A DNA stretch of 45,575 nucleotides, filler included, from Hausera hauseri (Eukaryota), in assembly GCA_046269625.1 (NCBI GenBank). It is 8 parts of 8 records of this genome, joined end to end, with 100 filler letters (N's around TTAATTAATTAA, not from the genome) between each part and the next. Parts side by side here need not be neighbours in the genome. Positions count along the whole stretch, not along the records: positions 1 to 7,941 come from JBJURY010860965.1; 7 more parts are not named here. One strand, given 5' to 3'. A program made the position numbers and the translations under genes. The notes under the pieces are model-generated. The model ran no database searches. It was not told where the DNA came from and was given only the letters and a program-made list of their open reading frames with translations. Positions 1 to 30,774 of the stretch are shown here, one piece after another. The first letter of the stretch is position 1. The number at the start of each line of letters is the position of its first letter.

Positions 1-110
1 ATCATCTCCTCCAGAAGAAAGGAAAATATTATTACTCCAAAGGAATATTTCAGAAAGACTATGCAGATACTGAAGAATGGAAGCAATTACCTAAATCGAT
101 ACAAGGAGCT

Positions 111-866
111 ATGGAAGAATTAATTAAGAATGAAAACGGAGGGGAACAATGTAAAATTAGATGGGTAGCAACGTTAGATCTAATAGAACCAGTACAAGAA
201 GATCTCAGCCTGACACCAATGACGATAACATCTGAAGCTAGTACAATTTTAGCTACTATTGAAAGTCTAATAAACCCAGTAGAGGAATACAATTATACGA
301 TGGCTAACCAGATAATCTCATACTTCAGATCAGTAAATGCCCTAAGATTAAACCCAACTAACCTCCCGTCTGCTCGAGAGGAAATAGATAGAGTATTGCA
401 TAGACTAGTATATCAACCATTACAGCATACCATCGTCAACTCAATAGAAATATGCCTACAAGACCAAGATATCCCAGATACCATAAAGAAACCACGTCTT
501 ATAGCAAATAGAACCAAACAATGGCTAAATGATATTGACTCAAATAACGATCACCCTAGCACCACGCTTCGTTTATTCGGAGAAAGTCCCCGTGAATGGC
601 TAAAGGATAGCGTAGATTGTTTATTGTTAAGAGGTAGCATAAATCAACTATCAAAAGAAGACCGAAAAGACTTCATCAAATTATACATAAGTCTATACAG
701 ACCATATTTTTATCGACTGGAACAGGAAACTGAAATAAACTTTAGAAAATTAGACTACAAATATCAATTACTCCTGATAGCCAGAATCTTATATACCTCC
801 TATAAAATTCCAGATAATAGCTTATTATCTTGTTCAGTAAATGATTTTCAAGCCATAATATACTAG
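111..866 (+). CDS. Hypothetical helical protein (251 aa; probably part of a longer disrupted ORF)
   Basis: Long open frame with the same composition as the rest of the block; no recognised motif. Confidence 0.45.
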   Translation: MEELIKNENGGEQCKIRWVATLDLIEPVQEDLSLTPMTITSEASTILATIESLINPVEEYNYTMANQIISYFRSVNALRLNPTNLPSAREEIDRVLHRLVYQPLQHTIVNSIEICLQDQDIPDTIKKPRLIANRTKQWLNDIDSNNDHPSTTLRLFGESPREWLKDSVDCLLLRGSINQLSKEDRKDFIKLYISLYRPYFYRLEQETEINFRKLDYKYQLLLIARILYTSYKIPDNSLLSCSVNDFQAIIY

Positions 867-1402
867 GAAGGTTTTTACCTGTTCCGTAGAATTCTGATAG
901 ACATATCTGTACAATCAGTATGGCTTAGACCTACCAATATTATGATAAGAATTTGGAAGGACATAATGGGAATACCAAGCAATGAACCTATATGCCCCAA
1001 ACATGAACTACTATTAAAAACTCGACTAGAAACCCATTCTACATTACAGACAATACGCTACATCCGATAACTCGATCCACTGGTAAAAAATACCGGATAT
1101 CATATGAAGAGACTATAGTGTATGAGGATAAAGTTAAATATCAACCCGTATTCATCGGAAGTCGTAGAGAACGAGTATTAATTACTCACTTCGTACGAGA
1201 AAAACCATTATTATTTCCTACGACAGACATAATCAACCTATTACGAAGAATCTCCCTGGAGTTAATAGCAAATACACCCCCGAAAAAAGTTGTCAAATTG
1301 GGTAGCAGATGCCTAAGATTGTTCAAGTACTACGGCGGTGAAATATTAAATAAAATCCTAGCAGATTCCTTCATAATTAATTGTTAGATAGTATACACAC
1401 TC

Positions 1403-1708
1403 ATGACAATAAAAGATGACCTTGTTCAGGAAGAGATAGATACTTACAAAGAAGAAGAAGCACGAAGAGTATGGAATAATTATCTGAAACGGGATATAAG
1501 TACACCGCTAACCTCATCGGATTACGAAGATATAGATAAATTCGATGTTGTAAATGCAAGTGGATTTTTAGGTAAATTAAACGCCTTACGCTATCATTTA
1601 ATATTCTGTGAGTTAGATGACAATCAAGAGATTGCTAAACCGTTCAAAGAAGAACGGAAAATATTAATAAATACACGTTTGCTAAATACTAATAATGAAG
1701 AAAAGTAA
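1403..1708 (+). CDS. Unknown ~90-aa domain, copy 1
   Basis: Aligns by eye, without gaps, to the N-terminus of 3908-4543 (LKR...LT..DY.DI..F..VNA.G..G..N..RY.LIFC......A..FK.ER). Confidence 0.6.
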   Translation: MTIKDDLVQEEIDTYKEEEARRVWNNYLKRDISTPLTSSDYEDIDKFDVVNASGFLGKLNALRYHLIFCELDDNQEIAKPFKEERKILINTRLLNTNNEEK

Positions 1709-3381
1709 CAACAGATATGACAAAAAGTATACGGCGATTAAGTGCCTTCGAAAGACATGCTTTGCGTATGTGCTGTAATAGAGAGTTATTCAAAATGGAG
1801 AAGCATAAAGATATGCCACTTAATGACGACGACCTCAATGAGATGAGGCGTATAACAAACATAAACCACCAGTAGTAGACGAGACACAATATGGAACGTA
1901 TCAACTCAACAACAATAGCAACCAAGCAACAGGAAACAATAACATAAACTAAGATGAACCTATACCCATTAAGATAACCAAACATTTGACACAGAAATAT
2001 ATTATAAACCCAAATACTACCGAAGAATGTAATAACGACATTCACCCAACATCAAATGAAAATCAATCTAACATAATTAGCAACGGATTTACTTACTCAA
2101 CATAAATGCTACTCATTATACCATTTATGTTACTTTTAACATCTGAAGCTACTCCTATGACGGTAAACATTACTCAAGAAAGTTCATCAGTTTGGGTATT
2201 ATTATCAATTTTAGTTAATTTAATGTTGCACATGAAGACGTCTGAGCAATCAAATAGTGATAAAGAGGTAACTCCAACGGAGGGAGACACCATAACGGAA
2301 GAAGTTACCACCATCAAACCAAAATATATAAAACGTAGAATGCTTGCAAGGATGAAGGAAATATCAATTAATAAGCCTTTTTTACCCTATGGTGATAAGG
2401 AAGATATTAACCTGCAGGTGAATATTGCTGCAGACGAACAGAATCAAATGAATCCCAAAACCCAATGCCAAACCCATACCTATAACTATCTTGCCAAGTA
2501 GAACGTTATGAAAGAAGAAGACTACAAGAAGATAAACGAGAAAATCAAATCTTTATTAAGAATTTTGATCAAACAACAGAATGGTCAAAATTGGATGGCC
2601 CCATCCAAATAAACTTAGAGATTTATGCAAAAGAGCCAACACTGAATCTCCATTATATACAGTTAATAGCTCAAAACAAAGAAATTACCAATTACATAAA
2701 GGAAGAGATTTATTCTCCGTTCGACGTACTCTCAGAAGAAACGTAGATAATCGTAGCTTTGAAAGCACAAGGAGTAGGCACAGTAGCAGAACATCCCTAT
2801 TTAACCACTAGTAAAATAATTCCAATACTCCGTGACATAAACAAGCTTCTCAAAGACCATCATGAACAATCAAATGGAGAATACGAGCTATATAGAGTAG
2901 CCAACCGTTTGGCCCAATTACCATTAGATAACAGAAGTCTCGTAGCAATAGTCGAACAAAACCCGGATAAGCGGACAATGATTAACTATTTCAGACAAGC
3001 CTACGTTACTCATTTGGAATTGAGAAAGGAAATCAAACAATCCGATCTAATCAGGAAAGTTGCACTATTAATGTACCAGAATGGAATACAACCCTACTGA
3101 AGAAATAAGATAACTGTTTATCAAAGTATCCAATATACAATTTGTTTATGGGAGACACTCAAACATATTAAACTAAAATTTATAACCTTTCACCTCGATG
3201 TGTACAAAAATATTTCGAACAATACCAGAAAGAGTCAAGGTATGATCCACCCACTCACCCAGTGAGAGATAACTTATTACTAATTACCAGCTTTCAACAC
3301 CAACTTTTCAAGTAAGTACTGCACAAAGGTAGATCATTTAAAGAACGACACGAAAACGAACGAACCAACTATAATTCAGGG

Positions 3382-3924
3382 TTGAGAATATTTGACGAAA
3401 TTATGAATGTATCTGGCTCAAAGCTTTCATGGTATAACCATATGCATGAGTTAGCCAGAGCTTGGAATTATAGATGGAAAATAAAATCCATCCACTTTGA
3501 GAATCGAAGATACGAATTAATAATTATGTATGAGTTACACCTATCAACTATACCACAATTGTTGAAAAAAATACGATTAGTCGACTTATTAAATGTAAGA
3601 CATGATTTCAGTGCGAATGCAACACTTGTAATTGGATCTAGCGTAGATTATGAACCCTTATTCATAGGTAACATAGCTGAAGGAAACTCTTTAACAAGAT
3701 TTCTCCGAGGTTATAGAGCCCCTCTGCCAGTCAATCACATTAAAAGAGAAATCGAAAGCGAATTGCCTGGCATAAAAGATTATGTTGATAATCACGAAAT
3801 GTATAGTGTAATCAGTTACCATCTAACCTTATATGAATGGTTTGGATTAGAATTGAGACAGCAATGTAAGGGTCACATATATACCACGTATCATAGCCTA
3901 CTCATTAATGGCATTAAAAGATAA
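3382..3924 (+). CDS. Hypothetical protein (180 aa)
   Basis: Open frame that overlaps the next ORF start; no recognised motif. Confidence 0.4.
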   Translation: MRIFDEIMNVSGSKLSWYNHMHELARAWNYRWKIKSIHFENRRYELIIMYELHLSTIPQLLKKIRLVDLLNVRHDFSANATLVIGSSVDYEPLFIGNIAEGNSLTRFLRGYRAPLPVNHIKREIESELPGIKDYVDNHEMYSVISYHLTLYEWFGLELRQQCKGHIYTTYHSLLINGIKR

Positions 3925-4543
3925 GCTTGATGAAGAAGCGTTACAGACGATAGAAGAAAAGGAAATTAAACTCCTATTGAATAAATGTTTGAAACGAAAC
4001 TCAAATCATAAACTTACGAAGCAGGATTACCAGGATATATACTCGTTTTGTAATGTAAACGCAGAAGGACTATCTGGTCGAATAAATGTTATCCGATACC
4101 GCCTAATATTTTGCTCAATACCCTTGTCCAACGAAAAGGCAGAAGAATTTAAATTAGAAAGAGAAAGAATAATATCACAAAGAAGGCCAATTAATCGAGA
4201 CAAAATTAATGATTGGATAAAATTCGTGACTAAACCTTTTACTCCAGCAGTACCTATGCTTATACCATCATTTTTAATTAAGAAAGCTGATGCAGAAACG
4301 ACTACCAATATTACATTACTAGCAAACAAGCCAATAGTCTCTCCAATAGTTATACTAGAATACACTATTTCCGCAGTAATATTGACACTTCTAGTTAGTC
4401 TTATAATAGGAGCAAAAATATTCTTCAACAAGAAAGTCAACCGATATAAGCGATTGAATTCCATTAGACTAGATATACTACCAACAACCAGTGGATTTAT
4501 GATTAGAAGCATCTTAATACCCTATCTAAAGCAAGAATATTAA
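3908..4543 (+). CDS. Unknown ~90-aa domain copy 2, followed by signal-like segment, NIT sequon and transmembrane helix
   Basis: Paralogy to 1403-1708; hydrophobic run YTISAVILTLLVSLIIGAKIFF followed by basic NKKVNRYKR. Confidence 0.6.
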   Translation: MALKDKLDEEALQTIEEKEIKLLLNKCLKRNSNHKLTKQDYQDIYSFCNVNAEGLSGRINVIRYRLIFCSIPLSNEKAEEFKLERERIISQRRPINRDKINDWIKFVTKPFTPAVPMLIPSFLIKKADAETTTNITLLANKPIVSPIVILEYTISAVILTLLVSLIIGAKIFFNKKVNRYKRLNSIRLDILPTTSGFMIRSILIPYLKQEY

Positions 4544-5778
4544 CAAAGAGGCATACTCATACAATCAAACGACAGATATAATATGACTAATATTACTAAT
4601 ATCATTCGTCCTTGCATTGATGAGTTATATCTCCGTTCTAATCAAAAAGTTTTATAAAATAAGGAGAGAAGTAAGAAGAAGTGAGCAGTTAAAGCTGGAT
4701 GTGGAAACAGCAAACGAGGAACCACCTCCAAAGTATGATGATGTGTCAGGTAATTCACCACGTATTTACAAACAAATAGCAGTACCTGTTGCATTGTCAT
4801 CACTCAATGTAACCTCAACGTAAGCAAGTCAATATGAATACGCAGTCATCCCTACCTTACCTGTTATGTATTACAAATCATTTCTGTTGGTATTGTTTCT
4901 AATGGGTTTAGCCAGTAGCACTGTAGTCGCATTAATAATAGTAGCATTTTATAAATGTTGCCGAGTAGTAAAATACTATCAAAGGAGAGCCAAATAATCG
5001 CCGCATCCTAATTACAAAGAAAACCAAGGTAACTACGGTAGACCAAATCCAATACTTTTATTTACCCTGGTAATACGCTGTTTAATTGGAAACTGCGCTG
5101 CCCAACCGGTCAGCTCAAGTGAGAAAGATTATGGAAAATATGTAAAATTTATATCATACGTACTAGCAATATATGCAGTCGAAAAAATAACAGAATTAAT
5201 TAAATTCACTAGGCAGCAATGGGAAAGAAAAAAACGAACCAGTAGAGAAGAATTCTTAGGTGCAATTCATACTATATTAGCCCCAAGGATAGTTCAAAAC
5301 TACATGTTACCAAAAGTAGAAATAGTAGAAAACCTATGGACAAAAGATCCACATATACAACGGTTATTAAAGGAATCATCAACAGCCTTAACAAAAGGAG
5401 TTGTTAGAAGTCATACATGGCCGAAAGTGGAATTAGACGATATACCCTGAATGGAGAATGAAGAAATCCAAACGGAACTCAACAGAATAGCAATAGACCA
5501 ATGTATCGTCTCAGAGAACAATACACTTAAATCAATTTCCGATACTATCCTATTAGAATTCAGAAAAACCTACGAGGAAATGTCAGCGGAAGATAAATTC
5601 TTATTGCTAAAATCGTGTGATGTAATAAGAAATAATGAGATAGCAAAAGAGAATACTTGGGATAGTTTACCTTACAGAAATATAACAGCTATAATAAAAA
5701 GATTCAAATTCTATAAAAAGAATGACGTCGACCTGTCAATCGAAGTACGCGAAAGTAGGAGGAAAATGGCGGTTGGGT

Positions 5779-7557
5779 CCCCCCCCCCCGGGGTGCGAAT
5801 CGATATAGCACATGTGCCAGTCGATAGTGTACATGCAGCACTATCGACCGGTAGAGTGCTAGGCGACGGTACCACTAGAGACCATTGCTATGCACACTTT
5901 TGCAAATTTGACAAATCGATCGCTGCACAATGCACTATTGATCGAATCGATCTGCACTTTGTGCTAATCGATAGTGCACATCGAGTTGCACCGATTGTTG
6001 CACAGTGAAGGTGTGCAGCACATGTGCAAGTGCGAAAAAATTAATATTATCAAATTTCTGATAATCCCAATATTGATGATTAGCACTCAGCATTGGGTGA
6101 AATTGGTAGCCCATGTGATGCGGTATGTGAATTTGCAGATAGAATTTAAATTGGTTGATTGGCTTTCGAATTATTCGCAAGTGGGACCGAACCACCACAG
6201 GCCTTTCCGCTATATATTTTAAATCAATAATATCAATATGGCGCATATACTGGCAGATGCAGCACTTGATTTAGTATCATTCGGTGCAAAACTCGTGTGT
6301 GGTGTGCACTTGGATACAGTTGCCAGGGCACTTTTTCACTTTACACATTTTTGCAGTTGTGCAGCTCAGGAGTGATGGAATTGATCGGGGTCAAGTGCAG
6401 GTGGATAGAGCACATGGAGGTGCATTTTGATATGTGGTGTGCAGTGCAAAAACATGTGTGCAAATGTGCAAAAATCATTAATATCGAATTTCCGATATTT
6501 CCAATATAGATGATTAGCCATCGGCACCGGGCGAATTTGAACACAAACATGGTGTAGTATATGAATGTGCAGTTAGAATTTAAATTTATCGATTAGCTAT
6601 CGATTAATATGGATGGAAAGTGAATAATGACCGTATTTTCCATAGATTTTTTAAGCCTATGGAAGCAAAATTCAATAACATTGAGCGGAGACATATATGA
6701 AATCCTCTATGGTGAACTCGAATCTCGAGTTGAAAATTCGAAATTGCAATTTTTTCGAGCTCGAATATCGAAGTTCGAACGATTGGAAAAATGTAACAGG
6801 GGCACTGATTCATCGTATTCAAAAACCCCTATGTACATAAAAATTATTCCATGAATATGTACTATACAGGCATAAAATCAATATTTCGAATTAAGCAAAA
6901 TGTGCATTTGAAGTCCAATGAAGCGAAAATCGATAAATCTAATAGCGTGGCTGGATATGAAGTCATATATGCCGATTCGGAATATGGCTTCAGGTATTCG
7001 AATTCGAGCTTACAAGTTGAATACTTGGATATTCGAACTCGAAAACTCGATCAAGCATACATTATTTGAAGAATGTAATGAAGGCATTCGATGCCCCATG
7101 GTCGGAAACCTGTATGGCAATCAAGATTATTGTGGTGCAGTGCTATGCAGTGTATAAAAACAAGGTTTGTCAAATGTGCTAAAAGTGCTTGTTAAATGCT
7201 GAGTAATTGTTATATTGATTAAGCAATAGAGGTGATTTTGAAGGTGAAGCACACAGAAATCAATAAATCTTTAAGCGCACATGGATAGGAAAGCATATGT
7301 GAAGAATCCGAATCTGATGTCAGATATTTCAATACACTATTCGAACTCAAAGAATTATCAAATCGAACTCGAATATTCGGTCAAGCAAGCATTATTTGAA
7401 GTATCCGATGGCTTTAATCAATTCCGCATATATGAAAACCTATTCAAATATAGCACCGTCACATATTTAAATCATTTGATGCATTAAAACAACAATGAAA
7501 AGCAATACGATGGCATAATTACGTGACAAGTTCATGCATTTGATGCATTAAAACAAA
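5779..7557 (+). repeat. Palindrome-rich interspersed repeat ('R' family), copy 1
   Basis: Starts at a C-run/G-run. Homologous to 17639-17786 and 37549-38740. Dense ATCGAT/GTGCAC/TCGA words, internal duplications (~6010-6170 vs ~6435-6600; ~6890-7110 vs ~7220-7445), and ends near ATTTGATGCATTAAAACAA as copy 3 does. Confidence 0.75.
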
Positions 7558-7941
7558 CGCATGATGTTAACAATACAACGTATTAGCAACAATATGCAGT
7601 GCCACATTTACCCCACCATTAAAATTATTTCCTTACATACGTTTTGTTTCACTGCATCAATATTATTTTCGTACGTGTTTTGTTTTACTTCATCAATAAT
7701 CAAAAATTATACAATGCAAGTTGACATAGCTATATTTTTCATTATTTCCAAATTCACTTCCACGAATGGTAAGTTTTTCTTATTTGTGTTCATCAAATCA
7801 TTGCTTTGTTTAGATGTGCAAACTTTACAGAGAGTGCTTGGCTCCAATCCATGAGACGGAAATATGCCATAGTATTATGATGAAATACTTTGGGCATATG
7901 TTCAACAGGGTTCAGTATTATATATGCCCTACATGTGAGGT

Positions 7942-8041
7942 NNNNNNNNNNNNNNNNNNNNNNNNNNNNNNNNNNNNNNNNNNNNTTAATTAATTAANNN
8001 NNNNNNNNNNNNNNNNNNNNNNNNNNNNNNNNNNNNNNNNN
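7942..8041. other. Synthetic contig spacer
   Basis: 44 N + TTAATTAATTAA (stops in all six frames) + 44 N. Confidence 0.98.
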
Positions 8042-8912: not shown

Positions 8913-10020
8913 CTAAAAGGCTCCTTCTGATTTCGGTTGAAATCGCCGCAGCATAGCATCGTCATCATTGTCGTCGTTGATTCCATAAAAATCTAACCAG
9001 GAATCAATGAGACTGGCGGCCAGTGGATGACGTCGGGATGATCGCATACGAGCGATGGAGTATCCCCGACGAGTGATAGAGACGTCCAACCAATCGCGTA
9101 ACAAACTGTCTGTTCGATGGGACTCTTCCTCGGTCAGAAGGTGAATGGGAAGAAGCTGTTTGTTGCAATCATACAAAGGAAGGAGACAAATCGATGAATT
9201 ACTGACAGCAACGTGGAGTGTCTGACCAAAACTCTCTCCATAATTGCTCAGTCCGGTCATACAACTTCCGGCCAACGAACAGACACTACTGTGTGACGAA
9301 TCGTAAGTATGTTGGTTGCGGGCGAAGGAGCCAGGGTGCGAACGTAAGGCTGCGTAAATGGCCGGTGCACTGGATGGATTGAACGAAGTTTCTGATGGAA
9401 CAAGAGCGGAAAAGTGTCTCCTAGTGTAACACAGGACAATTGGATTACGAGAACAGAACCACTTTTCCCTCAGTAAAGGAAGATAGACTCCTTGAAAAAA
9501 GTCAAATCTGACTGGCTCGTTACGATAATCATTAATAAACTTGACCCCGTAAACGATAATTGGTCGTCAAAATATGTGACACAGAACAGATATGTGGACC
9601 TGCTCCAATGGTTCACCTTGTTGGCATGCGATTTGCAAAAGATTTTGCCAATCCCTCTGAAACTAAAATTCATTGATTGTATAATTGAAAGCTCGTGCTT
9701 GATTTTTTTCGTATTCTCGCCAACATGGATAAAAAATATGCTCAGCTTCACGCATACCTTCGGCAAGTGCGGTGCGTAAAATATTATCCCTATCAAGAAT
9801 TCCCCATATTGCCTGGAAAACGCTATCTAACAAACGGTCCCAGCAGTACGATTCCACAGAGCTGTCAAACGATTTTGTGTACTGTTGAGAGCCCACCAGT
9901 TAATCACCTTTTCGTTTACCTCGAGTTCCCTTAATATATTTTTGTCAACCAATTCATCATATAGCTGACGACGGGTCAGTGGAGGTAGTAATTCGATTTC
10001 TGCTGGTAAACAAAACGTAC
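8913..10020 (-). pseudogene. ZRANB1: TRABID OTU-deubiquitinase C-terminal half, disrupted
   Basis: Reading across frameshifts gives TFCLPAEIELLPP...RLTALWNRTAG/DRLLDSVFQAIWGILDRDNILR...LEQVHISVLCHIF*RPIIVYGVK...FQGVYLPLL...PIVLCYTRRHFSALV...LLRDWLD...RRHPLAASLIDSWLD, colinear with TRABID. It has in-frame stops, and the catalytic Cys position reads R. Confidence 0.88.
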
Positions 10021-13401: not shown

Positions 13402-16400
13402 TCACGCCCCGTGGCAAAGTTAGAACTATAAAGGATAAAAGAAAGAGAAAAAAGGCGCAAAACGAAAAGTGTGTGTGTTAGTTGAGCTTAGTGTGTATAA
13501 GTCGTTGAATACCTTCGACTGATTTTTCCCTACTATATTGGCTGAATGTGACTCTGCGTGTTGTGTATTTGTGCTATGTGTTTCTTTGCAGAGATTGAGG
13601 CTGAAGAAAAATTTGTTAGATTTTAGTGTAGGTGTTATGTCGATTGAAGATGACGAGGAAGGTGAAGAAGGTGAAGAATAAGGTAAAGAAGGAAGAATGA
13701 TTGTTGAAGAAGGAGGGTTAAAGATATTGAAAAGAGTATTAGAAGTCGAAGGAGTGATGAAAGGTGTAGTGGTGGATAAAGGAAGAGAAGTTGGAGTAGA
13801 GATTGGAGTCGTGTTGAGTGAAGGAGTGGAAGAAGAAGATAATACAAAGGTAGTGGTAGAGATAGAAAATATGGTAGGAATAGAAGGAGAAATTGTAGAA
13901 GATGATGAAGCAAGACTAGGCGCGGAAGAAGAAAGTGGAAGTGGTATAGTAATAGATGTAGGGATAGAAGGGAGTGGAGGAGTAAGAAAAGACTTTGGCG
14001 TGTCGGTTGGTAAGGTGTCGTCGACAAAGAAAGCAGGCTTTAGGTTGGTTATGTGTACTGTGAAATCTTTACCGTCTTTGGACATGATGATGTTATGCGA
14101 GTGCAGCTTTATAAGTATATAGGGCCCCAGATACCGTGGTTGGAAACTGCAAGGAGCCTGATTCTTCAGCCAAACGAATTTTCAGGTAGGTAAGTTTTAT
14201 CTTTGTGAAGTAACCTGCAAAACGCATCTCTGCTGATCTCGACGAAGTGACTTTGAGCCGCCCGCATCGTCTCATCTGTGGGAGTGTCGTCTAGGGCGGT
14301 TAATTCGAATAATGAGCGGACAGGAGTTCCGAATAAGGCTTCAGTAGGCGAGCATCCTGTAGAAGTGGACGGAGTGTTCCGCCAGCCAAGCAGAACGAAA
14401 GGAAGACGATTGGTCCAACTAGAACGCTAGGAGGCCGTTCGATTGGGAATGATAAGGCATAGTATGAATGTGGTTGATCCCCAATCGGTTAACAAGGAAT
14501 TTGAACAGGTTGGATTCAAATTGTAGACCTTGGTCCGTGAGGATGAAGCAAGGTGATACGAACCTGTTGATCCATGTGCGAATGAAAACGTCAGCTATGG
14601 TGTCGGTGTTTATGCTCCACAGAGGGATGGCTTCTGGCTATCGCGAGGAACGGTCCATCATGGTGAGGATGAATTGATGACCATTGTCTGGAGGAAGAGG
14701 GCCAACAATGTCGATATGCACGGCTTCGAAACGCGATATGCAGGGGAAGTGGAATAGTGGTGGCTTTAAATGCTTAGCTGTTTTGTATTTTTGGCATGCC
14801 ACACACTCCTTAACCCATGCCTGCACATCAGAATGCATTGACGGCCATATTACTTGTCGACGGGGGAGGCGAAAAGTGTCTTTAGCACCAGGATGGTGTA
14901 ATGAATGCATGTGGTGAAATGCTTGTCTTTGCAACGAAGGTGCTAGGATTATTACTGAATGACCTGATTTGCAGGTGTCTAAAGCCACGCCGTCAAAGAT
15001 TGTGCAAGATTTAAAAGTATTAAGCATGTCTTGAGGTGGCTAATTCTGTTGAAGTTGTTCTTGCGTAAAAATCGGAGAAAAATTAATAGAACTAACCAAC
15101 CTAGATAAAAAATCAGCAACTAAATTGTTAACTCCGTTTATATGTTTAATATCGAAGTTAAATGTCAATAAGTATGATATTTGTCCTTCTTGGCGTGTGG
15201 AAAGGTGTTTCATGGACATGATGTTAAGTAAAGGCTTGTGGTCCATTTGTAGAGTGAAATGACGAGCGACGAGTAAGTGTGAGAAATGTTTGAGGGAGAG
15301 AACGATTGCCAACAGTTCTCGATCGAATGTGGAATACCTGGTTTCAGGTGCGGTTAGTTTGCGAGAAAAAAATTCAATGGTTCGTTTTCTCCCTTGTAAA
15401 TTTGGTGGAGTGCAGGGCCTAAAGCAGTGGTTGACGCGTCAGTGGCGAGGATGAGCTCTGCATCAGTCTTGGGAAAAGCAAGAATATCTACAGTTTTGAT
15501 GCCTTCGCGCAGCTTGTCGAATTTGTCAACCAATTTAGGTATCCACTAAATTGGCTGATGTTTTTTGCCGCCGTTTAGATGTGCGAATGGTGCTGTTAAT
15601 TCCGAGCAATAGGGTACATATTTGTGAACAAAGTGTAGCGTGCCAAGGAAGCTACGCATTTCGGTGGTCGTACGTGGCAATTGGATGTTTTTAAGCTCTT
15701 CGACTCGATCTGATTGGGCAGAATGACCGTCTGGTGTGATAGCATGTCCTAAAAAGTTAATGCGCATTTTGAAAAAGTGGCATTTGTCGAAGTTAATTTG
15801 GAGATTATGGTAGTGAAGACGTTGGAATATCGACTAGAATGTCGTCGATATAAGGGTTTGCAAACGAGAAATCGGAAAGAATGGAATCGATGTGTTGCTG
15901 AAAGGTTTGTGCGGCATTTAGTAAACCGAGTGGCATAAACAGATATTCGTAGAGACCAAACGGAGTAGTTACTGCGGTTTTTTCTGTCTTCAGATGCTAC
16001 CGGTATTTGGTGGTAGGCTTTAGCTAAATCAATGGTAATTGACTTAATACGATGCAGGACATCCTTAATGAGTGGTAAAGGATATGTATCCATAATTGTC
16101 AAGTTGTTTAGCTGTCGGTAGTCACAGCATGGTCGAAAAGTACCATCCTTTTTGTACCACGTGTAAAGGTGATAACCAAAGTGATTTGGAACGGCGTACG
16201 ATGCCGGAGCGTTCTAGCTCAAGAAACTCGGCTTCTATGGCTTGTCTTCGGCGAGGTGAGGGAGGCCGTACCTTTTGACGTATTTGACGTTGATGCTGTG
16301 TGACTATGCGGTGTTAAGTGCTGTTGGCGGGAGTAAAAGTGCTATCCTTTTTAAGTACGCGTGAACATGATTTATTAATGAATTGCTGTAACGTTGTAGG

Positions 16401-17136
16401 TAGCTGTGAGAGATTCTGTGAAAGTAGTGGAACAATTTGAGTGGTAGCGGGTGAAATATGAGTTGTTAGGTGATGTGCAGTCAAGTGGTATTTGGTGTAA
16501 GATGGATGAATTGAAAATGGTGTTGGCTGAGGTATTTTCGTCAAATGAATTAGCACTGTTGGCAGTACCACACTTATCGACATCAAATCTTGATCGTATA
16601 TCAGTGTTATTGTTTAAAAATTTCCGAATTGAAGTATTATTATGAGAATTTGAATTATTGTTATAAAAAGTCGAATTATTCGCAGACTTTTAAGATTGAC
16701 TTCCGCCCCACGGTCCACTGTGCGGTAGTCGAAAAGCTATTTATATGACCAGAAATGTCGCCAACGGTGCCTTTCCTCAAACATTGCTGGCTGCAGTCAA
16801 CCAGTAGGTTGTAGTGTGAGAGAAAGTCAGACCCTAGGATTGCCGACTGGACGTTAGCGACTGTGAACGTTTAGCGGAAAGATGTAAAGAAACCAGACAA
16901 GATGAAAGATAATGTAGCCGTGCCCGAGATGCGCAGCGGCTGGCCTGAAGCAGTATATAAAGGCTAAAGTTTGAATGGAAAATTTTATGTAGGAAAGGTT
17001 TGCGGTAATAGAGAAATTGCGGGCCTGTATCAATAAGGAAGTCAAGAGATTGAGTTGTAGGGGCAGTGATTGCAGCCTTTAACGTAAAGACTGAGAAAGA
17101 GATGTGTCGGCGTGCAGAATGTAAAGTAGTGCCTTT

Positions 17137-17178
17137 GCCAGAGTTTGCCGTGACCTCTGGCGGCAAACTTAGTTTTTT
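17137..17178 (-). promoter_or_regulatory. -1 ribosomal frameshift signal at gag/pol junction
   Basis: A AAA AAC TAA followed by GTTTGCCGCCAGAGGTCACGGCAAACTCTGGC (stems GTTTGCCG/CGGCAAAC and GCCAGAG/CTCTGGC, H-type pseudoknot geometry). Confidence 0.75.
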
Positions 17179-17638
17179 GGAAAAGATGAACTGGAACGAC
17201 TGTGAGAAGTGAAGGCAGTACGTCCGTCGTTCGTATTAAAATTGAAGGTACAGCCAGGGATACATTTACATGCTTGATTTTTGAATCTCGCGTGGTAAAT
17301 GCAAACCACGGTGTTTGAGGAAAACTTCTGGTTATAAAATTGGCAACCCAGGCAGCATTTCTAAGCGGTTGTGTTCAATCTGCTGTGGTAGTAGCAGATA
17401 GACGAACGCGCAGGCGATGGTGAGTGGTTCCGTGACGTAGAACTGGCACGGGAAGCGGCAAAACCGCCTCGTCGGGACAGGGACAACTCGTTCAACTTAT
17501 TGTTGATGTTGTTGATTGTTGCATGTAATGCCATGTTTTCAGCACGTAGCTGACCAAGTTGTTGTTCTATGGATGTAGTGTTTGATTGTATGTCGTTAGT
17601 TGCGACAGTAGGGGGAAAATACCGCTTCTGGCTCAGCT

Positions 17639-17786
17639 CCCCCCGGGGGAGATCGATAAATCGATTTTGCACGTGCCGATCGATAGTGCACCCGGAACAC
17701 TATCGATCCATGAAATGCTAGGCAACGGTTCCGTTAGGCACCGTTGCTAGGCACATTTTTGCACATTTGATAAATCGATCGCTGCA
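17639..17786 (+). repeat. 'R' family copy 2 (terminus only, cut by contig end)
   Basis: CCCCCCGGGGG start and the same twin hairpins as copies 1 and 3; truncates gypsy gag. Confidence 0.8.
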
Positions 17787-17886
17787 NNNNNNNNNNNNNN
17801 NNNNNNNNNNNNNNNNNNNNNNNNNNNNNNTTAATTAATTAANNNNNNNNNNNNNNNNNNNNNNNNNNNNNNNNNNNNNNNNNNNN
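17787..17886. other. Synthetic contig spacer
   Basis: 44 N + TTAATTAATTAA + 44 N. Confidence 0.98.
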
Positions 17887-18240: not shown

Positions 18241-18420
18241 AATAACTATATATATGTAATCGCTTTTTTTGAAAAATGTGTTTTGTAAATATTCGTATTT
18301 ACGATGATGGTAAAAATTTAAAATGAAATAAAAAATTATGGCAGCTTTTTTCTTTCTGAAACTATGAATTTTGAAGATTCAGGTACTTTGGAATATATTC
18401 GAAATAAAAACGAATCTATC

Positions 18421-21400
18421 AAAGATGAATTGATGAGCATTGTTTCGAGGAAGAGGGCCAACAAGATCTATGTGCATGGACTCGAAAGGCGATGTGCAAG
18501 GGAAATGATGTAGTGGTGACTTCAAACGCTTTGTGGTTTTAAATGTCTGGCAATCCGCGTAATCCTTAACCCACTCTTACACATTAAAACACATTGAAGA
18601 CCAAACTACCTGTCGGGGAAGCAAGCGAAAAGTAGCCTTAGCACCAGGGTGATGTAATGAATATACGCTGTTGAATGCCTGTTTTTGCAAGGCAGGGGTT
18701 AAGATAATTTTAGACTGCCCTGGTTTGGACGTGTCTAAGGCCACGACGTCAATGTTGTAGCAAGATTTAAACGATTTAAGGATGCCTAGAGGTGGCTGGT
18801 TTTCACGAAGCTGGTTTGGAGTGAAAAGAGGCTTAAACTTAATTGAGCTAACTAACATAGATAAAAAGTCTGCGACTAAGTTGTAAACACCGTTAATATG
18901 ATTAATTTTAAAATTAAATGTCGACAAGTACCAAATCTGTCGTTCCTGTCGAGTAGAAAGTTGTTTCATTCCCATGATGTTTATTAAGGGTTTATGGTCA
19001 GTTTGTATAGTGAAGCCTCGAGCAGGGAGTAAATGTAAAAATGTCTTAAAACGAGAACTATCGACAGTAGTTCTCGGTCGAAGGTGAATTATCTAGTTTC
19101 AGGAGGTGTTAGTTTGCGTGAAAAAAACTCCTTCAGTTGATTTTCGCCTTTATGAATCTGATACAGTACAGCGCCTAAGACAGTGGCGGCAGAAAAAGCT
19201 TGGCATCTGGCTTAGGATAAGCTAAAATTTTGACTGTTTTTAGGCCTTCTATTAATTTATCAATGTTATCCAGCAGTTCCGGCGTCCACAGTATTGGATG
19301 ATGCTTTTTTCCTCTACTTAGCTGAGCAAAGGGCGCGGTTAGTTCTGAACAATATGGATCATACTTGTGGCCGAAATATAATGTGCCAAAGACGCTCCTC
19401 ATTTCGGTAGTTGTTCGAGTTAATTGGACGTTCTTGAGGGCTTCGACTCAATCAGGCTGGGGAAAATGCCCTTCAGAAGAGATAAAGTGTATGAAGAAAT
19501 TTGTACGTCGTTTAAAGAAGTGACATTTCGTAAAGTTTATCTGAGGGCTGTGTTTGTGTAAACGGTGAAAGATGGATCGGAAATGTTCTTCATGTTGTTT
19601 GGTGGATGAAGAAACAACAAGAATATCATCAGTGTAAGGATGATCATAAGGAAGATCAGAAAGAATTGCATCTATATGACATTGGAAAGTTTGTGCGGCA
19701 TTCCTTAAGCCAAAGGACATATATAAATAATCTAAAGGCCGAAGGGTGTAGTAACGGCGTTTTTTGATATCTTCGGGTGCCACCGGGATTTGATGATAAG
19801 ACTTGGCCAAGTCAATGGTGGAATAGGTTGTGGCGGATTTAAGACCATGTAATATATCTTTTATCAATGGTAAGGAATATTTGTCCATTACAATCAAACA
19901 GTTTAGTTGCCGGTACTCACCACATGGTCTGAACGATCCGTCCTTTTTTGCACAGCATGTAAGGGAGAGAACTATGGTGACTTGGATCAACGTACAATGC
20001 CAGAGCTTTCAAGGTCTAAAAATTCGGCTTCAACCGCCTTTCTGCATCTAGAAAATAATGGTCGTACCTTATGGTGTTGCGCAATGATGTGATGAAAAGT
20101 GCTATTTTCTGGTGTGAAAAACCTATCTTTTTGAATTACGCGAATGCATGATCTATTTAGGCACTGCTGCAGATTTTCAAGCAATTGTGAAATTTATTTT
20201 GTGGCTTAAAATCGAGAAGTATTTGATGTAGAATGGTCGTGTTCAAAATTGTATTTAAAATAGTGATCTCATCCTATGATTTTTCAGTGGAGACAAAATT
20301 ATAGTTATTGACATTCAATCTCCCTTCGTTATTTATACTATATTTTAATAATTTATCAAATAAATCATGTTTATTTCAAAATATCGGTTTATTCGCGTGC
20401 TTTTTCAAAATTGACTTCTTTGTGACATTTATCTGCGCAACAGCTGTAACTCTATTTATCTGGTTGGTTCGATTTTTTTGAAGATACTTTTCACACAACG
20501 TTGTCTACAATCCATCAAAAGATTGTAATACGGTAAAAATCAGATCCAAGAATGGCTGAATGTACATTTGCGACTATAAATGTCCACTGAAACTTTGAAG
20601 AAAAGTTTGGCAAAGTGAAGGAAAGTTTAGAAGTTCCAGAAACATACAACGGTTGTCAGGAAGCTGTAAAAAGAGATTTCGTTTTAGATGTAACGTTTTG
20701 AATTGGGAAATTGAGCGGTAGAAGCGATATTGCTGCACCTGTGTCGATAAGGAAGTTTATATGTTGAGATGTCGGTGAACTGGTAGAAGCTTTTAATGTG
20801 AATGCAGCGAAAGAAATTTTTGGGCTATTAGAAAATAATGGGTGGCCTTCACCAATGCTCGCCAAAAGCTCTGGCGGCTAAGTTAGTTTTTTGCAAGAGA
20901 GGAACCAGGACGGCTGTTAGAAGCAAGAATAGCGAGTCCGTTATTTGAATTATGAGCGTTGTTTTTAAAAGTGCAACCTGGGATGCATCTGCATGCATTG
21001 TTTGACTTTTGCATGATATGTGCAAATGACGCTGTCTTTACGATACTTCTAGGTTTCAAATTTGCACCCCTGGTGGCATTTTTGTGCTTTATTATCAAAC
21101 CTACCGTGATAATAGCAAATCAGTGATAGTCCAGTTGAAGGTGACCGACCACGGGACACAGAACTGTTACGGTCAGGTATAAAACTCCTTCGTTTTGTCA
21201 GCGAAATTTCATTTAATCTGTGATTAATATTATTAATTGTTGTTTGTGAGGTCGCATTTTTAGCCCATAGTTTATTTAATTGTTGTTCGAATGCTGTATT
21301 GTTGTTGCTAGCAGCTGCAGAAATGATGGGCTGTGCATGTAGGTTCAAAACTTTATATGTTTTATCTGCCAGTTTGGCCAATTTATCCAAAGCCCTCGAT

Positions 21401-21921
21401 TTCTCGACGACGGTAAGTAAGTTTTGATCTGGATGGGCAATGCATTTAGGAAGTAACGTCGTAAGAGGTCAGCATTATGTTGTTTAGTAACGCCGAGTGT
21501 TTGCAATTGAGCAAGGGAAGTTTTTAAAAAATCAGACGGTTTCTGCGTTCACATGGCACTGTCATTGAAGAATCTATGGATAATAGAATCCATGGATGGT
21601 TCCGTATGATTTAATACTGCGTTATAGAGATGGGTGCATGGGTCAAATTGTTGAAATAGATCTAACAAATCATGATTAGACGTTTTTACTGCTGTCGGTA
21701 AGAGACAAAGTAAGCTATGAGTTTTGGCTGATGGATCGGTGATGCCACTGGACTTCAGCTAAAGTTTATGAAAATTAAGGCATGTTTTGCTTGAATTTTC
21801 ATGGTCTATAAAATACTCTGTGCATTGGGAAGAAGTGCTTTTAGATTGCGAAGGAATAGTGGTAAAAGTAGTCATGTTGGATGGTGTGGTGACAGTCGTT
21901 GATTTTTGAAAAAAGGGTGTA
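18421..21921 (-). mobile_element. Ty3/gypsy retrotransposon copy 2 (gag to mid-integrase, degenerate)
   Basis: gag start ~21875, twin zinc knuckles, FLIDTGAAISLLP, IDLAKSYHQIPV, FGLRNAAQTFQ, YTDD, DHKPL, LHHPG, HIDLVGPLP; many stops and frameshifts. Confidence 0.95.
20851..20892 (-). promoter_or_regulatory. -1 frameshift signal, gypsy copy 2
   Basis: AAAAAACTAA then CGCCAGAGCTTTTGGCG stem, at the same gag/pol position as in copy 1. Confidence 0.65.
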
Positions 21922-22021
21922 NNNNNNNNNNNNNNNNNNNNNNNNNNNNNNNNNNNNNNNNNNNNTTAATTAATTAANNNNNNNNNNNNNNNNNNNNNNN
22001 NNNNNNNNNNNNNNNNNNNNN
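21922..22021. other. Synthetic contig spacer
   Basis: 44 N + TTAATTAATTAA + 44 N. Confidence 0.98.
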
Positions 22022-26575: not shown

Positions 26576-26675
26576 NNNNNNNNNNNNNNNNNNNNNNNNN
26601 NNNNNNNNNNNNNNNNNNNTTAATTAATTAANNNNNNNNNNNNNNNNNNNNNNNNNNNNNNNNNNNNNNNNNNNN
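26576..26675. other. Synthetic contig spacer
   Basis: 44 N + TTAATTAATTAA + 44 N. Confidence 0.98.
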
Positions 26676-27056: not shown

Positions 27057-27453
27057 TGTCGTGCCCACATTCACCTAATCGATAATTTGGACAAAAAAAA
27101 AACATTTTCTTGTCTAAATTTATAAATCAAATTCTCTTGTTTTCAGCCAATTTCGAACGTTTAATATTTCAAGTCTATTTTTCTCTTTGTAACTCGACTG
27201 TGCCTAATTTTGACATGTAATTTTCTCATCATTATGAAATGGTTATCAATCTTGGGCAGCTTTGTTATTGTATGATACGGTTCAGAATTTGTTGATATTG
27301 TACAGACTAAATACAACACGCGAATTTCAACTTACTCTCTATTGATGTTGGATTTAATGTCGTAATCGTTTTATTTTCTGTAGAGTTTTGGCTATCCATG
27401 GATAACCGTACAATAAATGACCAAATTATAAACCAAAACCTCGGAAATCACAC

Positions 27454-27464
27454 TGGTGTCAGAA
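27454..27464 (+). promoter_or_regulatory. Primer-binding site complementary to tRNA-Leu 3' end
   Basis: TGGTGTCAGAA one base after ...TCACA; this is a common invertebrate gypsy PBS (TGGTGTCAGAAGTGGGAT). Confidence 0.6.
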
Positions 27465-27699
27465 CCCCACATCTGTACACAGTCGTTGTACAACGGGCAG
27501 AAGTCCAATATTTTCTAATGGTCATTGATCCAGTAGGATCAACCGTTTTCCATCAACCAGTTAACCCAGGAGAGACCAATTCTCTAATAATCGAAACACG
27601 TCAAATAGAATTTTACATCCCATATCTACATCTCGGCGAAATCCAGGAATTATTTTATTTCTCCATCAACAGCACAGTCGACACAACAGATACTGTCAG

Positions 27700-28677
27700 T
27701 GCTGCTCCCGTCCAGCCGAATAAAATGCTAAAAACCAACGATTGCTGACGCAATTCTCATCCCTCTCACTCACCAAAATATAATTGTCGGGATATTGAAG
27801 GATCCAATACAGACACTTCTGAAATCGCCATTTGATTTCCTTAAAGCACTTTGTAATCTCACCCAAGGCGGGATTGTCAAACATTTTACTGCCTATATCC
27901 AGAATTTATCAGATCGTCATTCACGAAATCCTCAAGTATATTGGAAGGAAAAGGACCGTGCACTGCTCTTCATTACTTCCATTGCATCACATGGCGGTAC
28001 CGAAAGATACAGCGTTACGAATGCGACCTTCGTTGACATTGCTGCACTCTATAAGAGTCACGTGTTGCCGGGATTATCTGATAAATTGGCGGTAATGCAG
28101 TCGTTAAAGCCAACTGTATCAAGTATCTTATGGCATTCTGTAATATCATTTCCCACGACGAACTGAAATCATTGATAAATTTGCTATCGCAATTTGCCTG
28201 TCATCAATTTCACATCGTCTACACGTATGCAGCTTCTGCCGTTAATAAATTATTGATGGTTCGTTATCCGTAGTCACCAAATGCCATCAGTACTGCGGCA
28301 TATGTTAACGAAACGATGCTGTTTCGGTTGTGCGATGCATTGCAGATCGAAGGATCAGAAGAAAATGACTGTACTATGCAGGTCATTATGCGAGGTTTGA
28401 GTATGTTGAAAACTAGTCAGCTGCTGTTGGATAAAATTCTGCCGTTCTCACTACGAAAATTGGATTTAGCCGTTAAAAATCCGAAGAAACCACGATTCAA
28501 TCATTTCGTAATGGAATCCATTGACTGTGCTTAAAAATCGTGTGCAATAACAATTCCAATTACGTCAGTGAACTTAAAACTGCACTGGCACCAATAGTCA
28601 AAACGGTCTTTCAGAAAGAAGTTGAACAATTCCGGCCGTACATATTTCAATTGCTGAGTCTCCTTCTAGGTCACAGT
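27700..28677 (+). pseudogene. CSE1L: Exportin-2 internal fragment, frameshifted
   Basis: RDIEGSNTDT, DFLKALC, NPQVYWKEKDRALLFITSIASHGGTE, HIVYTYAASAVNKLL, GSEENDCTMQVIMR, KNPKKPRFNHFVMESI, QFRPYIFQLLSLLL. Confidence 0.88.
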
Positions 28678-28861
28678 CCACCTACATGTTGGTCACTAGA
28701 AGACTCACGTTGGGTCCCGCCTGGCAAATCTGACTTTGCCACGGGGGTGTGGTGTGGTGCCCACATTCACCCAATGAGTGATTTGTTGATAAAAACTTTG
28801 TTTGTTTCAATATTCAAAATAATAAAAGTTTTTTTGAGTTTCCTTAAATCCTTTTTGCACA

Positions 28862-30029
28862 ATGAGTGACTGTCTTTATATTCCCTGCATGGACAAACAG
28901 GTTAGACTAACATGGGAAAACGTTAATGAAGGTATTGTGTTTAATGATGGTTTTACGTCGGATATTTCTTCTGCTTCTGGTTTGTTGACTGAAGTTAAAT
29001 GGCTTTGTTCAATGCAAGAGCCGATTTCCCAGTATTTAGCTATACAGTCATACCATATTTTTGAAAAGCTTCAAAGTTTAAAAGAATACGATTTGGAAAG
29101 CCTCTGCAAAAGTCAAGAATACATAGCTGTCCTTACAGAATGCAGATAGCAGATTGAAAATGAAATTAATTTTTTGGAACGAAATGGACAAGATAAGAAT
29201 AACGATAAATACGTGTACTTAACGTCTCAGTGTAACACAATTAGAGATCAGCAGTTGTTGTGGCATTTGTCTGAAATTCTGTTTATCAAGTCCAGTCTAG
29301 CGGGCTACCTGCTACAAGATTTAAAAGGTTGTCTGAATCTGCAGCAGCAACATGTCTTGTCAGCCTACGAATTATTGCTGGATTTATTCAATGACGGTGA
29401 TCGGGATATGATATTGGAAGACGACGATAGATTCTGGCCAACGGTTATTTCATTAGGACTTCACGGTCGAAATTTAGAGCTCGCCAACTTGTTGTCCTAT
29501 TATTCTCACAACAACCGTCAGATCTTTAGAACTATTCTCGACGTTTTAGATCTCATGCCGGTTTTTTGGTACGAAATTGAAAATCTCACAGAATTTGAAA
29601 TTGCTTGGCAAAAATGGCATCGATTGGTTCGAGAATCGCTGATCGACAGTTGCGTGCTGAATGTGTATCCACACTTATGTACCCTGGCGAGAGTTTTGGC
29701 CGGCGACGAACGCGTATTCATTGAAGATATCGTGATGTAGCTTTTCGACGGATATCGGTTTTTGGCGTTTATATCGTTTAATTTGCACTCATCACCGTTA
29801 GCAAGTATTAAGTATGTTAAACAGTGTTACAAGCGATTTAAACAGTCATTTTTGAATTCATTAGAATATCAGAAAGTTCCGAATATGGGGCAATTATCCG
29901 AAGAATTGTTGAAAGCCATCGATTCGATATTCAATTTGAATATCGGCAACTTAATTCTAACCATTTCTAAAAACAAAAACAATTGGTGGTTGCTAGCCCA
30001 TCTGATTGACATGATCGATAAACTTCACA
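28862..30029 (+). pseudogene. NUP85: Nucleoporin Nup85, N-terminal ~390 codons with two in-frame TAG
   Basis: One frame from ATG 28862 with TAG at 29147 and 29738. Motifs SQEYIAVLTEC, LLWHLSEILFI..S.AGYLLQDL, FWPTVISLGLHGR, F..AWQKWH, PHL..L.RVLAGDE, NWWLLAHLIDMID. Ends abruptly at the tRNA-complementary sequence. Confidence 0.82.
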
Positions 30030-30030
30030 C

Positions 30031-30069
30031 TGGTATAAGAAGTGGTATTCGAACCCACGCCCACGAAGT
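30031..30069 (-). other. Mature tRNA-Leu 3'-half copy including CCA (an extended PBS when read on +)
   Basis: + strand TGGTATAAGAAGTGGTATTCGAACCCACGCC vs tRNA-Leu complement TGGTGTCAGAAGTGGGATTCGAACCCACGCC (3 mismatches in 31). No 5' half of a tRNA is visible. Confidence 0.8.
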
Positions 30070-30189
30070 TTATTGCATCTTATGAATTTTGAAATTGAGA
30101 ATTCTTGTTGGCCATTTTTTTAGCGTCGCAGTTTTAATTTAATCTATCGCCGATCGGGTTTAATTTATTACAATCGTGAATTAGATTTT

Positions 30190-30674: not shown

Positions 30675-30774
30675 NNNNNNNNNNNNNNNNNNNNNNNNNN
30701 NNNNNNNNNNNNNNNNNNTTAATTAATTAANNNNNNNNNNNNNNNNNNNNNNNNNNNNNNNNNNNNNNNNNNNN
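30675..30774. other. Synthetic contig spacer
   Basis: 44 N + TTAATTAATTAA + 44 N. Confidence 0.98.

Follow-up and report, generated by a model that had tools for sequence, protein, structure and literature searches.

The window analysed here is the whole stretch of 45,575 nucleotides (filler included) of Hausera hauseri DNA, joined from eight parts, and its first 5.7 kb raise the question of which protein this block encodes and what kind of element carried it. A preliminary description had read the block as a decayed polyprotein made of repeated small membrane-protein modules, as opposed to a single-copy, spliced host gene.

A single decayed frame with one known relative

From position 1 to approximately 5748, the block is real coding sequence in a single, decayed, intron-free frame (Table 1), interrupted by 12 premature stops and 7 frame switches (near 1085, 1700, 1850, 2490, 3205, 3890 and 4535). 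In seven frame segments, picked by eye and by homology, 11 in-frame stops were counted over a total of 1,774 codons versus approximately 133 expected from composition; the twelfth stop, at 1950 inside the linker, is additional to these. Free of stops are, among others, the segments 3-863, 3316-3921 and 3857-4540. The frame joins near 3205 and 3890 rest on homology only, and that near 2490 on the related protein P0001. The region 4545-5778, proposed earlier to be a single frame, is one, with four stops (4584, 4821, 4995 and 5448). The block itself had been delimited as 1..5778, and this holds as coding sequence to approximately 5748, whereas the last ~30 bases (5749-5778) come from an unrelated abundant repeat. 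Recoding of stop codons was ruled out, since all three stop codons and also frame switches are present.

Table 1. Features of the block and of the sequence that follows it.
Feature	Position	Strand	Description
Polyprotein frame	1..5748	+	at least ~1,900 codons; open at 5′ edge; P0001 colinear with 2064-3582; copies in run X1
Soluble domain copy 1	27..1680	+	~550 aa, predicted helical, no family
Linker	1699..2081	+	part N/Q/T-rich low complexity
Cassette 1	2082..2230	+	signal-like helix (interrupted by stop 2103), small-residue site before 2151, sequon 2166, 13-residue second helix 2190-2228
Soluble domain copy 2	2540..4183	+	paralogy to copy 1; match to P0001
Cassette 2	4245..4455	+	weak signal-like helix, site before 4295, sequon 4307, transmembrane helix 4367-4423, basic tail; no stop
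Cassette 3	4500..4745	+	weak signal-like stretch over frame switch, sequon 4563, stop 4584, transmembrane helix 4587-4643, basic tail
Cassette 4	4780..4994	+	weak signal-like helix, stop 4821, transmembrane helix 4878-4952, di-cysteine 4956, polybasic tail
Cassette 5	5052..5180	+	signal-like helix, small-residue site before 5103; second helix short, amphipathic; below thresholds
C-terminal soluble region	5181..5748	+	at least 185 aa, stop 5448; no family; cut by repeat
Unrelated repeat	5749..7941		truncates block; 434-nt period at 6023-6608
Artificial contig linker	7942..8041		44 N, 12-base all-frame stop spacer, 44 N; 7 identical in window

The sole relative found among 1.84 billion protein representatives was P0001, 34-46% identical; a word-index protein search returned P0001 alone out of 7,303 candidates and, for longer proteins, nothing out of 1,587. 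P0001 is unbroken over the equivalent of 2064-3582 and has the cassette fused with the domain. It thus runs stop-free from cassette 1 into domain copy 2, which bears out the reading as a decayed polyprotein. The stop at 2103 lies within a hydrophobic stretch through which P0001 is open. Cassette 1 matched P0001 with 35% identity over 69 aa (E 1e-7), and P0001 retains the signal-like helix, the cleavage motif, the sequon and the second helix, with the small residues at -3/-1 and the sequon conserved. Since P0001 is unbroken over cassette 1 and these elements are kept, the signal of cassette 1 is internal to the polyprotein; this comparison covers cassette 1 alone of the five. The N-terminus of P0001 (residues 1-135) did not match the linker of the window (z ≤ 0.7). 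Separate genes with junction signals of the negative-strand-virus type were also ruled out: the A-runs of six or more (n = 5) lie off the cassette borders, and P0001 is continuous.

A duplicated soluble domain

Two paralogous soluble domains of ~550 aa each, which arose by tandem duplication and were overlooked in the preliminary description, fill ~3.3 kb of the block, against ~1.1 kb for the five short membrane cassettes together. The claim of a block built from repeated small membrane modules was therefore not confirmed. The paralogy of the two copies was found in four pieces (z = 10.9, 3.8, 8.9 and 33.6); the last ~97 aa of copy 2 are 43% identical to copy 1 (1388-1678), and copy 1 also matched P0001 (phmmer E 1.2e-14). 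The C-terminal region showed no relation to the duplicated domain when compared by sequence.

The folded model of the C-terminal half of copy 1 had a pLDDT of 54.7, with residues ~120-200 at 64-87, and that of P0001 a pLDDT of 53.6 and a pTM of 0.32. Foldseek with these low-confidence models gave no match in BFVD or PDB at E ≤ 0.001. The best VIA Z scores, 5.1 and 6.2, both fell on poorly modelled helices and barely covered the confident subdomain; such scores do not amount to a match, and they do not establish that the fold is new. Given an alignment of more copies, the duplicated domain is a candidate for fold discovery.

Five membrane cassettes

The five peptides quoted in the preliminary description were all found where it had placed them. 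On the + strand, three stop-free 19-residue windows had a mean hydropathy of at least 1.9 (4334-4429, 4587-4646 and 4878-4952), versus 0.22 ± 0.48 (maximum 2) in 100 dinucleotide-model sequences. The same scan gave 16 windows on the - strand, a by-product of the A-rich + strand. Full transmembrane helices are thus present in three cassettes and the other two are weak: cassettes 1 and 5 are under the threshold, and their second helices, of just 13 and 11 residues, appear short for a membrane span.

A home-made rule for signal, cleavage site and second helix found sites in three of the five cassettes (1, 2 and 4), and none in cassettes 3 and 5; for cassette 1, it matched both the block and P0001. 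Its clusters numbered 5 in the block versus a mean of 0.25 (maximum 2) in 40 null sequences, where the rule was devised after the sequence was seen and the null set is not protein-coding; its two extra matches are themselves transmembrane helices. The signal helix of cassette 2 contains prolines and two lysines. Sequons occur in three of the five short ectodomains (chance 0.001-0.008, post hoc), those of cassettes 4 and 5 having none. Glycosylation needs a sequon ~12-14 residues from the next helix; those of cassettes 1 and 3 are ~8 residues ahead of it, and are perhaps too near. The module pattern proposed earlier (signal, site, sequon, transmembrane helix and basic tail) stands as far as the three helices, the three sequons and the three rule sites go, and fails the rule in cassettes 3 and 5. 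Likewise, the description of the block as free of known motifs is right for families but overlooks a PPxY at 4725 in the tail of cassette 3, which also has YxxV at 4734.

Copies of the block and the repeat that truncates it

The block is a member of a repeat family, because the sequencing run X1 contains many divergent copies, 80-90% alike (8 longest pieces). The evidence on copies is from this one run, possibly the source of the window itself. At single listed places, 6-90 contigs deviate from the window, and at the stop at 1950 all 11 X1 contigs covering it have a different letter. Length differences between copies were found in at least four of the seven frame-switch windows (1084, 1700, 1848-1850 and 4540), among 12 of 15 rows; an additional row, at 3309, corresponds to no frame switch. 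Thus, in place of a single-copy spliced host gene, a frame that is multicopy in run X1 and intron-free was observed.

The summed X1 depth over the block was 287-4,357 versus 4-8 per long contig, a depth that does not equal copy number, and it rose from 287-742 over the first 1.3 kb to 1,092-4,357 at 3181-5300, in the 3′ half. This bias is weakly in line with the 5′ truncation expected of a giant non-LTR or Penelope-like element (Terminon type) that had the block as an accessory frame. Terminons reach 40 kb, and their ORFs carry coiled coils and transmembrane domains (PMC6431247). Against this origin, to which we give little credence, Rfam models, the hammerhead included, had no match at E ≤ 1 over 1-7941, and no RT is linked to the block.

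The repeat that follows the block had a depth of 85,718-485,601, and copies of it with different flanks lie at 17602-17786 and 37571-37870. It is 20-1,000 times deeper than the block and is found next to unrelated flanks, and its start is identical at two unrelated places, so that a role as the LTR or polypurine tract of the element is unsupported. The sequence beyond the artificial linker at its end is unlinked to the block.

Searches for the carrier

Pfam, PHROGs and NCBIfam scans of block segments and P0001 gave nothing above curated cut-offs (best E 0.007). The PDB searched by sequence had no match at E ≤ 1 (best E 0.45 in a second search), and the ESM Atlas gave no usable match. None of the pattern matches in JGI metagenomes (495 and 599), IMG/VR (592, 504 and 2) or GTDB genomes (247) was confirmed as a related locus, and phages likewise gave none. 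With one relative among the protein representatives and no family or fold match, the block represents an orphan protein family.

In Pfam scans, no gag with CCHC knuckles, protease, RT, RNase H, integrase, env, RdRp or helicase was found within 1-5748, on a contig open at 5′ and cut at 3′, nor any BIR, ankyrin, MATH, BCL2 or env-like domain within the block. No LTR or terminal repeat linked to the block was found in the window, and the true ends of the element lie outside. The RT and integrase matches of the window are all on other, unlinked contigs, and its Gypsy RT was therefore ruled out as the missing pol.

The composition of the block is foreign relative to the other window stretches: the sense strand is 40% A (44% at third positions), and TpA o/e is 1.02 versus 0.67-0.84 in seven other stretches, ordinary Gypsy remnants among them. 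It also differs from that of the intron-free host-like frames on other contigs of the window, frames that would otherwise favour a pseudogene of an expanded intron-free host family, a multi-pass membrane protein with ordinary spans and no cleavage. Several signal helices are weak, as such a gene would allow, but the protein searches found no annotated eukaryotic homologue and the -3/-1 residues and the sequon are conserved in cassette 1, and we regard this origin as improbable. NTAN1, on another contig of the window, matched only two mollusc proteins, at 30-31%, so that the host is probably a divergent animal.

The A-rich sense strand without TpA depletion would suit an endogenised polyprotein piece from a positive-strand RNA virus with a large genome, flavi-like or nido-like. 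Host elements would have reverse-transcribed it, with later amplification either passive or following capture by a retroelement. The planarian nidovirus PSCNV and a ~40-kb flavi-like virus have single-ORF giant polyproteins, and the cited portions describe signal-peptidase cleavage, multiple membrane regions, and repeats or helical domains of unexplained nature as typical there (PMC6211748, PMC11287256), like the predicted sites and regions of the block. Both viruses have RNA genomes that encode RdRp and helicase, whereas the block is a repeated genomic DNA family in which no such enzyme was seen. No cysteine-rich glycoprotein ectodomain occurs in the 5.7 kb, and neither IMG/VR nor the predicted viral structures of BFVD gave a match; RdRp, helicase, protease and class II glycoprotein had no Pfam, PDB or BFVD match, with low-confidence models and a block that is possibly an accessory region. 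Moreover, many divergent genomic copies require an amplifying carrier. We hold this origin to be rather unlikely.

In Polinton-type and other large DNA elements, the genes are as a rule separate and spread over the two strands, whereas here one strand and one frame extend over 5.7 kb and P0001 joins cassette and domain. Cargo of such an element (a Polinton/Maverick, an integrated large DNA virus or a giant DNA transposon) is distinctly unlikely. In its favour, such genomes often contain small membrane proteins and tandem paralogues, like the tandem 550-aa duplication, the block is multicopy, and other contigs of the window contain remnants that are Polinton-like by their motifs, of which a profile search found only endonuclease VII (E 0.025). 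There was no PHROGs or phage match, and no pPolB, integrase, ATPase or capsid gene or terminal inverted repeat in the block. If the carrier were an RNA or DNA virus, the block would be a fossil of an unsampled virus lineage.

Proposed origin and processing

The reading that we prefer, with even chances of being right or wrong, is that the block is an accessory polyprotein of a giant Burro-like LTR retroelement, from which signal peptidase would release p7-like hairpins and cytosolic domains that stay attached to the membrane; the parent element is likely virus-like, giant and undescribed so far. Burro elements (GYPSM1) are planarian giant Gypsy-like LTR retroelements with polyproteins of 4,873-5,140 aa and thousands of copies that decay through stops and frameshifts (PMC6431247). 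The block resembles them in being multicopy, with a very long intron-free polyprotein (at least ~1,900 codons) of non-standard domains and decayed copies. No domain in common was detected, and for Burro the cited portion reports neither a series of signal-membrane cassettes nor a 550-aa duplication (PMC6431247). Against the Burro-type reading, neither gag-pol nor an LTR could be connected with the block, and Pfam scans found no Burro accessory domains in it; the composition, unlike that of the Gypsy elements of the window, also fits an RNA-virus origin.

For cleavage, carrier and function of the polyprotein, we infer the following. The polyprotein would be cut at the ER by host signal peptidase, as it would be under an RNA-virus origin. 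Every internal signal helix would re-open translocation, with cleavage behind it; 10-25 residues would reach the lumen, glycosylated in at most three cassettes, and the next helix would act as stop transfer. Through this alternation, the C-terminal region and the two ~550-aa domains would remain on the cytosolic side, anchored to the membrane. Cassettes 2-4 would come free as hairpins of two helices (~80-100 residues) whose cytosolic loop is basic, in the topology of HCV p7 and alphavirus 6K. The type-I membrane proteins proposed earlier need this correction, because the released pieces would retain the next signal at the C-terminus. The products would probably serve membrane remodelling and host-pathway manipulation, as an aid to the assembly and cell exit of the element's particles. 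PPxY motifs recruit Nedd4-type ligases/ESCRT, as that of cassette 3 may do; gag-pol would lie outside the contig. Serial signal-peptidase cassettes, in the case of a retroelement carrier, would give such elements a novel means of drawing several small membrane proteins from a single frame. A genomic parasite would then follow a strategy of RNA viruses, and have in it a candidate route for exit or cell-to-cell spread without env.

The topology of alphavirus 6K is like that of HCV p7. The latter, a class IIA viroporin, is released by signal peptidase and has two helices, a basic cytosolic loop and both ends in the lumen, according to the cited portion (PMC4576187). For cassettes 2-4, the likeness is one of topology only, predicted from hydropathy: there is no sequence relation, the cassettes are serial instead of single between a glycoprotein and a non-structural protein, and their loops are longer, with PPxY/YxxPhi.

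Reovirus p10-type FAST fusogens have a small ectodomain, a transmembrane helix, a juxtamembrane di-cysteine and a polybasic tail, as summarised in the cited portion (PMC12945298). The FAST-like topology suggested earlier is borne out in these features by cassette 4, the only one of the five with a di-cysteine (basic tails occur in cassettes 2-4). It does not extend to an ectodomain cystine noose or cysteine pair, nor to an N-terminal glycine for myristoylation, the predicted cassette N-termini being T, E, Y, S and Q. In addition, the cassettes are part of a polyprotein, and the common features are also general to palmitoylated single-pass proteins.

A further, unlikely reading is an undescribed giant endogenous virus-like lineage of animals that uses signal peptidase to produce a row of micro-membrane proteins and tethered copies of a new domain, and spreads from cell to cell without a classical envelope glycoprotein. 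The micro-membrane proteins would then be p7-like pores, a PPxY budding adaptor and a FAST-like palmitoylated piece.

Reading frame and domain organization of the block

On the plus strand of the first contig (1-7941), open frames succeed each other from 1 to about 5748, forming a block that continues past the 5′ edge of the contig, with switches of frame near 1085, 1700, 1850, 2490, 3205, 3890 and 4535. The seven segments contain 11 stops in 1,774 codons versus about 133 predicted from composition, and a twelfth premature stop is located at 1950. Stop-codon recoding was ruled out because all three stop codons occur among the premature stops, indicating that the block is decayed. Its sense strand has 40% A, 44% A at third positions and a TpA observed/expected ratio of 1.02; the seven other window stretches measured, including two Gypsy remnants, gave 28-35% A and TpA ratios of 0.67-0.84.

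Every peptide quoted in the preliminary description was found at its place. The membrane modules proposed there, here called cassettes, span about 1.1 kb. The larger part of the block had been overlooked: it is duplicated in tandem, with two soluble domains of about 550 residues occupying about 3.3 kb. Similarity links 1388-1678 to 3893-4183 (43% identity across 97 residues, E 1e-21), and over the whole domains it falls in four pieces (z = 10.9, 3.8, 8.9 and 33.6 against 300 shuffles). Along the block, domain 1 is followed by a linker, cassette 1, a second linker, domain 2, cassettes 2-5 and a further soluble region.

Positions of features along the window
Feature	Position	Strand	Remarks
Domain 1	27-1680	+	
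Domain 2	2540-4183	+	
Cassette 3 loop motifs	4725; 4734	+	PPxY; YxxV
Cassette 4	~4780-4994	+	juxtamembrane di-cysteine, basic tail
P0001 alignments	2064-2261; 2429-3208; 3205-3582	+	35%, E 1e-7; 34%; 46%
Abundant repeat	5749-7941; 17602-17786; 37571-37870		non-coding, extremely abundant, 434-nt period, many short palindromes
Artificial linkers	7942-8041; 17787-17886; 21922-22021; 26576-26675; 30675-30774; 35000-35099; 39641-39740		eight unrelated contigs concatenated
Decayed Gypsy-type LTR elements	13426-17699; 18400-21468	-	RVT_1, Integrase_H2C2; unlinked to block
Host-gene pieces	27311-30085; 31791-32396; 35695-36114; 39742-40518		Cse1, Nup85, TTC7, LOTUS domain, NTAN1; long, intron-free
Inverted-repeat arms	41352-42228; 43729-44568		about 850-880 nt, 90-95% alike

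Membrane cassettes and a relative

Three full-length hydrophobic helices were found on the plus strand (4334-4429, 4587-4646 and 4878-4952), versus 0.22 ± 0.48 expected from 100 random sequences. A home-made signal-site rule gave five clusters in the block versus a null maximum of two (40 null sequences); it detected cassettes 1, 2 and 4, missed 3 and 5, and fired twice on the transmembrane helices themselves. Since the rule was devised with the sequence already seen and the null was non-coding, this is modest evidence for the cassettes. Sequons occur in three of the five ectodomains (chance 0.001-0.008, post hoc). PPxY motifs, one of which lies in the loop of cassette 3, bind Nedd4-type ligases and act as budding signals, a role that the cassette 3 motif may share.

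When domain 1 was searched against 1.84 billion protein representatives, a single match was obtained (E 1.2e-14): P0001, a 622-aa protein forming a nameless one-member cluster, from a 2,053-base ENA contig. P0001 reads all three aligned stretches (2064-3582) in one uninterrupted frame. Both helices of cassette 1, the signal-like one and the second, are conserved in it, as are the small residues ahead of the site, with a sequon likewise a few residues past the predicted cleavage site. The window stop at 2103 lies inside the helix that is intact in P0001; the Met at 2106 is thus internal, and so is the predicted signal of cassette 1 within the polyprotein. For the earlier proposal of a polyprotein cut by signal peptidase, P0001 is the best evidence, and it extends to cassette 1 only.

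In the proposed mechanism, each internal signal helix would re-open ER translocation and the following helix would stop transfer, so that topology would alternate consistently along the chain, with the large domains cytosolic and 10-25 residues per cassette in the lumen. Because every released piece would carry the next signal at its own C-terminus, the predicted products are hairpins of two helices, not the plain type-I proteins first suggested. With a basic loop and both ends in the lumen, such pieces would share the topology given for HCV p7 in PMC4576187. FAST fusogens differ, since the block cassettes have neither the cystine noose nor the myristoylation site described in PMC12945298.

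No match to the block was found in Pfam, PHROGs, NCBIfam, PDB sequences, ESM Atlas, IMG/VR, JGI metagenomes, GTDB, phage genomes or Rfam. Two AlphaFold models were mainly helical with low confidence, pLDDT reaching 64-87 only in the domain's final ~90 residues, and fold searches with both, which scarcely probed this subdomain, gave no significant match. Search listings of the open-access literature showed neither a retroelement nor an endogenous virus that combines a duplicated large domain with a series of signal-micro-ectodomain-helix cassettes; a consensus may sit unnamed in Repbase-type libraries or paper supplements. The parts of the strategy are already known, and the protein family and arrangement appear new. 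The family is a real orphan with one relative and a conserved odd architecture, its signal and cleavage features being predicted ones.

Copies of the block and its carrier

Copies were sought at 80% likeness in the contigs of one sequencing run (X1), which has no record as RNA, contains 0.56 of sampled words and may be the window's own source. X1 covered 30 of 30 bins, its eight longest pieces falling in the block (80-90% alike), and at single listed places 6-90 contigs depart from the window sequence. Summed depth over the block was 287-4,357 versus 4-8 for a long contig, depth not being copy number. Length differences of other copies fall in four of the seven frame-switch windows (12 of 15 rows among those listed), and one listed row, at 3309, corresponds to no switch. 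At 1950, the sole premature stop among the 40 of 1,691 rows listed, all 11 contigs spanning the position have a different letter. The block is therefore one of a family of repeats, in an old and damaged copy.

We favour a giant LTR retroelement as carrier, because a sequence must travel with something that replicates in order to amplify inside the genome, and because Burro elements set a precedent. Burro elements, with polyproteins of 4,873-5,140 residues and thousands of copies (PMC6431247), have a long polyprotein and many copies in common with the block, in which, however, neither a retroviral enzyme nor any of the Burro domains was detected. The block may also be an amplified RNA-virus fossil, a reading kept because large RNA-virus polyproteins likewise use signal peptidase and contain unexplained repeats (PMC6211748 and PMC11287256). 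Alternatively, the same copies may represent cargo of a DNA element, part of a Terminon-like element or a host gene family.

Other elements of the window

At about 5749 the frame is cut off by a different repeat, which recurs twice with different flanks, one copy adjoining a Gypsy remnant. Its X1 depth is 20-1,000 times that of the block (up to 485,601), and it may be MITE/Helentron-like or a satellite. The seven identical linkers (44 N, 12-base spacer, 44 N) separate unrelated contigs, so the window is not one locus and adjacency across linkers carries no meaning.

Frames at 30731-31192 and 33044-34047 resemble Polinton DNA-polymerase remnants in their motifs; their Pfam scan gave endonuclease VII only (E 0.025). 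A 217-aa minus-strand frame (8913-9566), which we take to resemble an A20/OTUD7-type deubiquitinase region, had no match in a Pfam scan, nor did a 110-aa frame (43237-43569) in the 1.5-kb core of the long inverted repeat, which reads as a foldback-type element. NTAN1, Nup85, TTC7, Cse1 and LOTUS-domain frames are present on other contigs; the host is probably a divergent animal, because NTAN1 matched just two mollusc proteins (30-31%). The Cse1 and Nup85 pieces are both broken by stops, and the intron-free pieces are either retrocopies or genes of an intron-poor, fast-evolving host.
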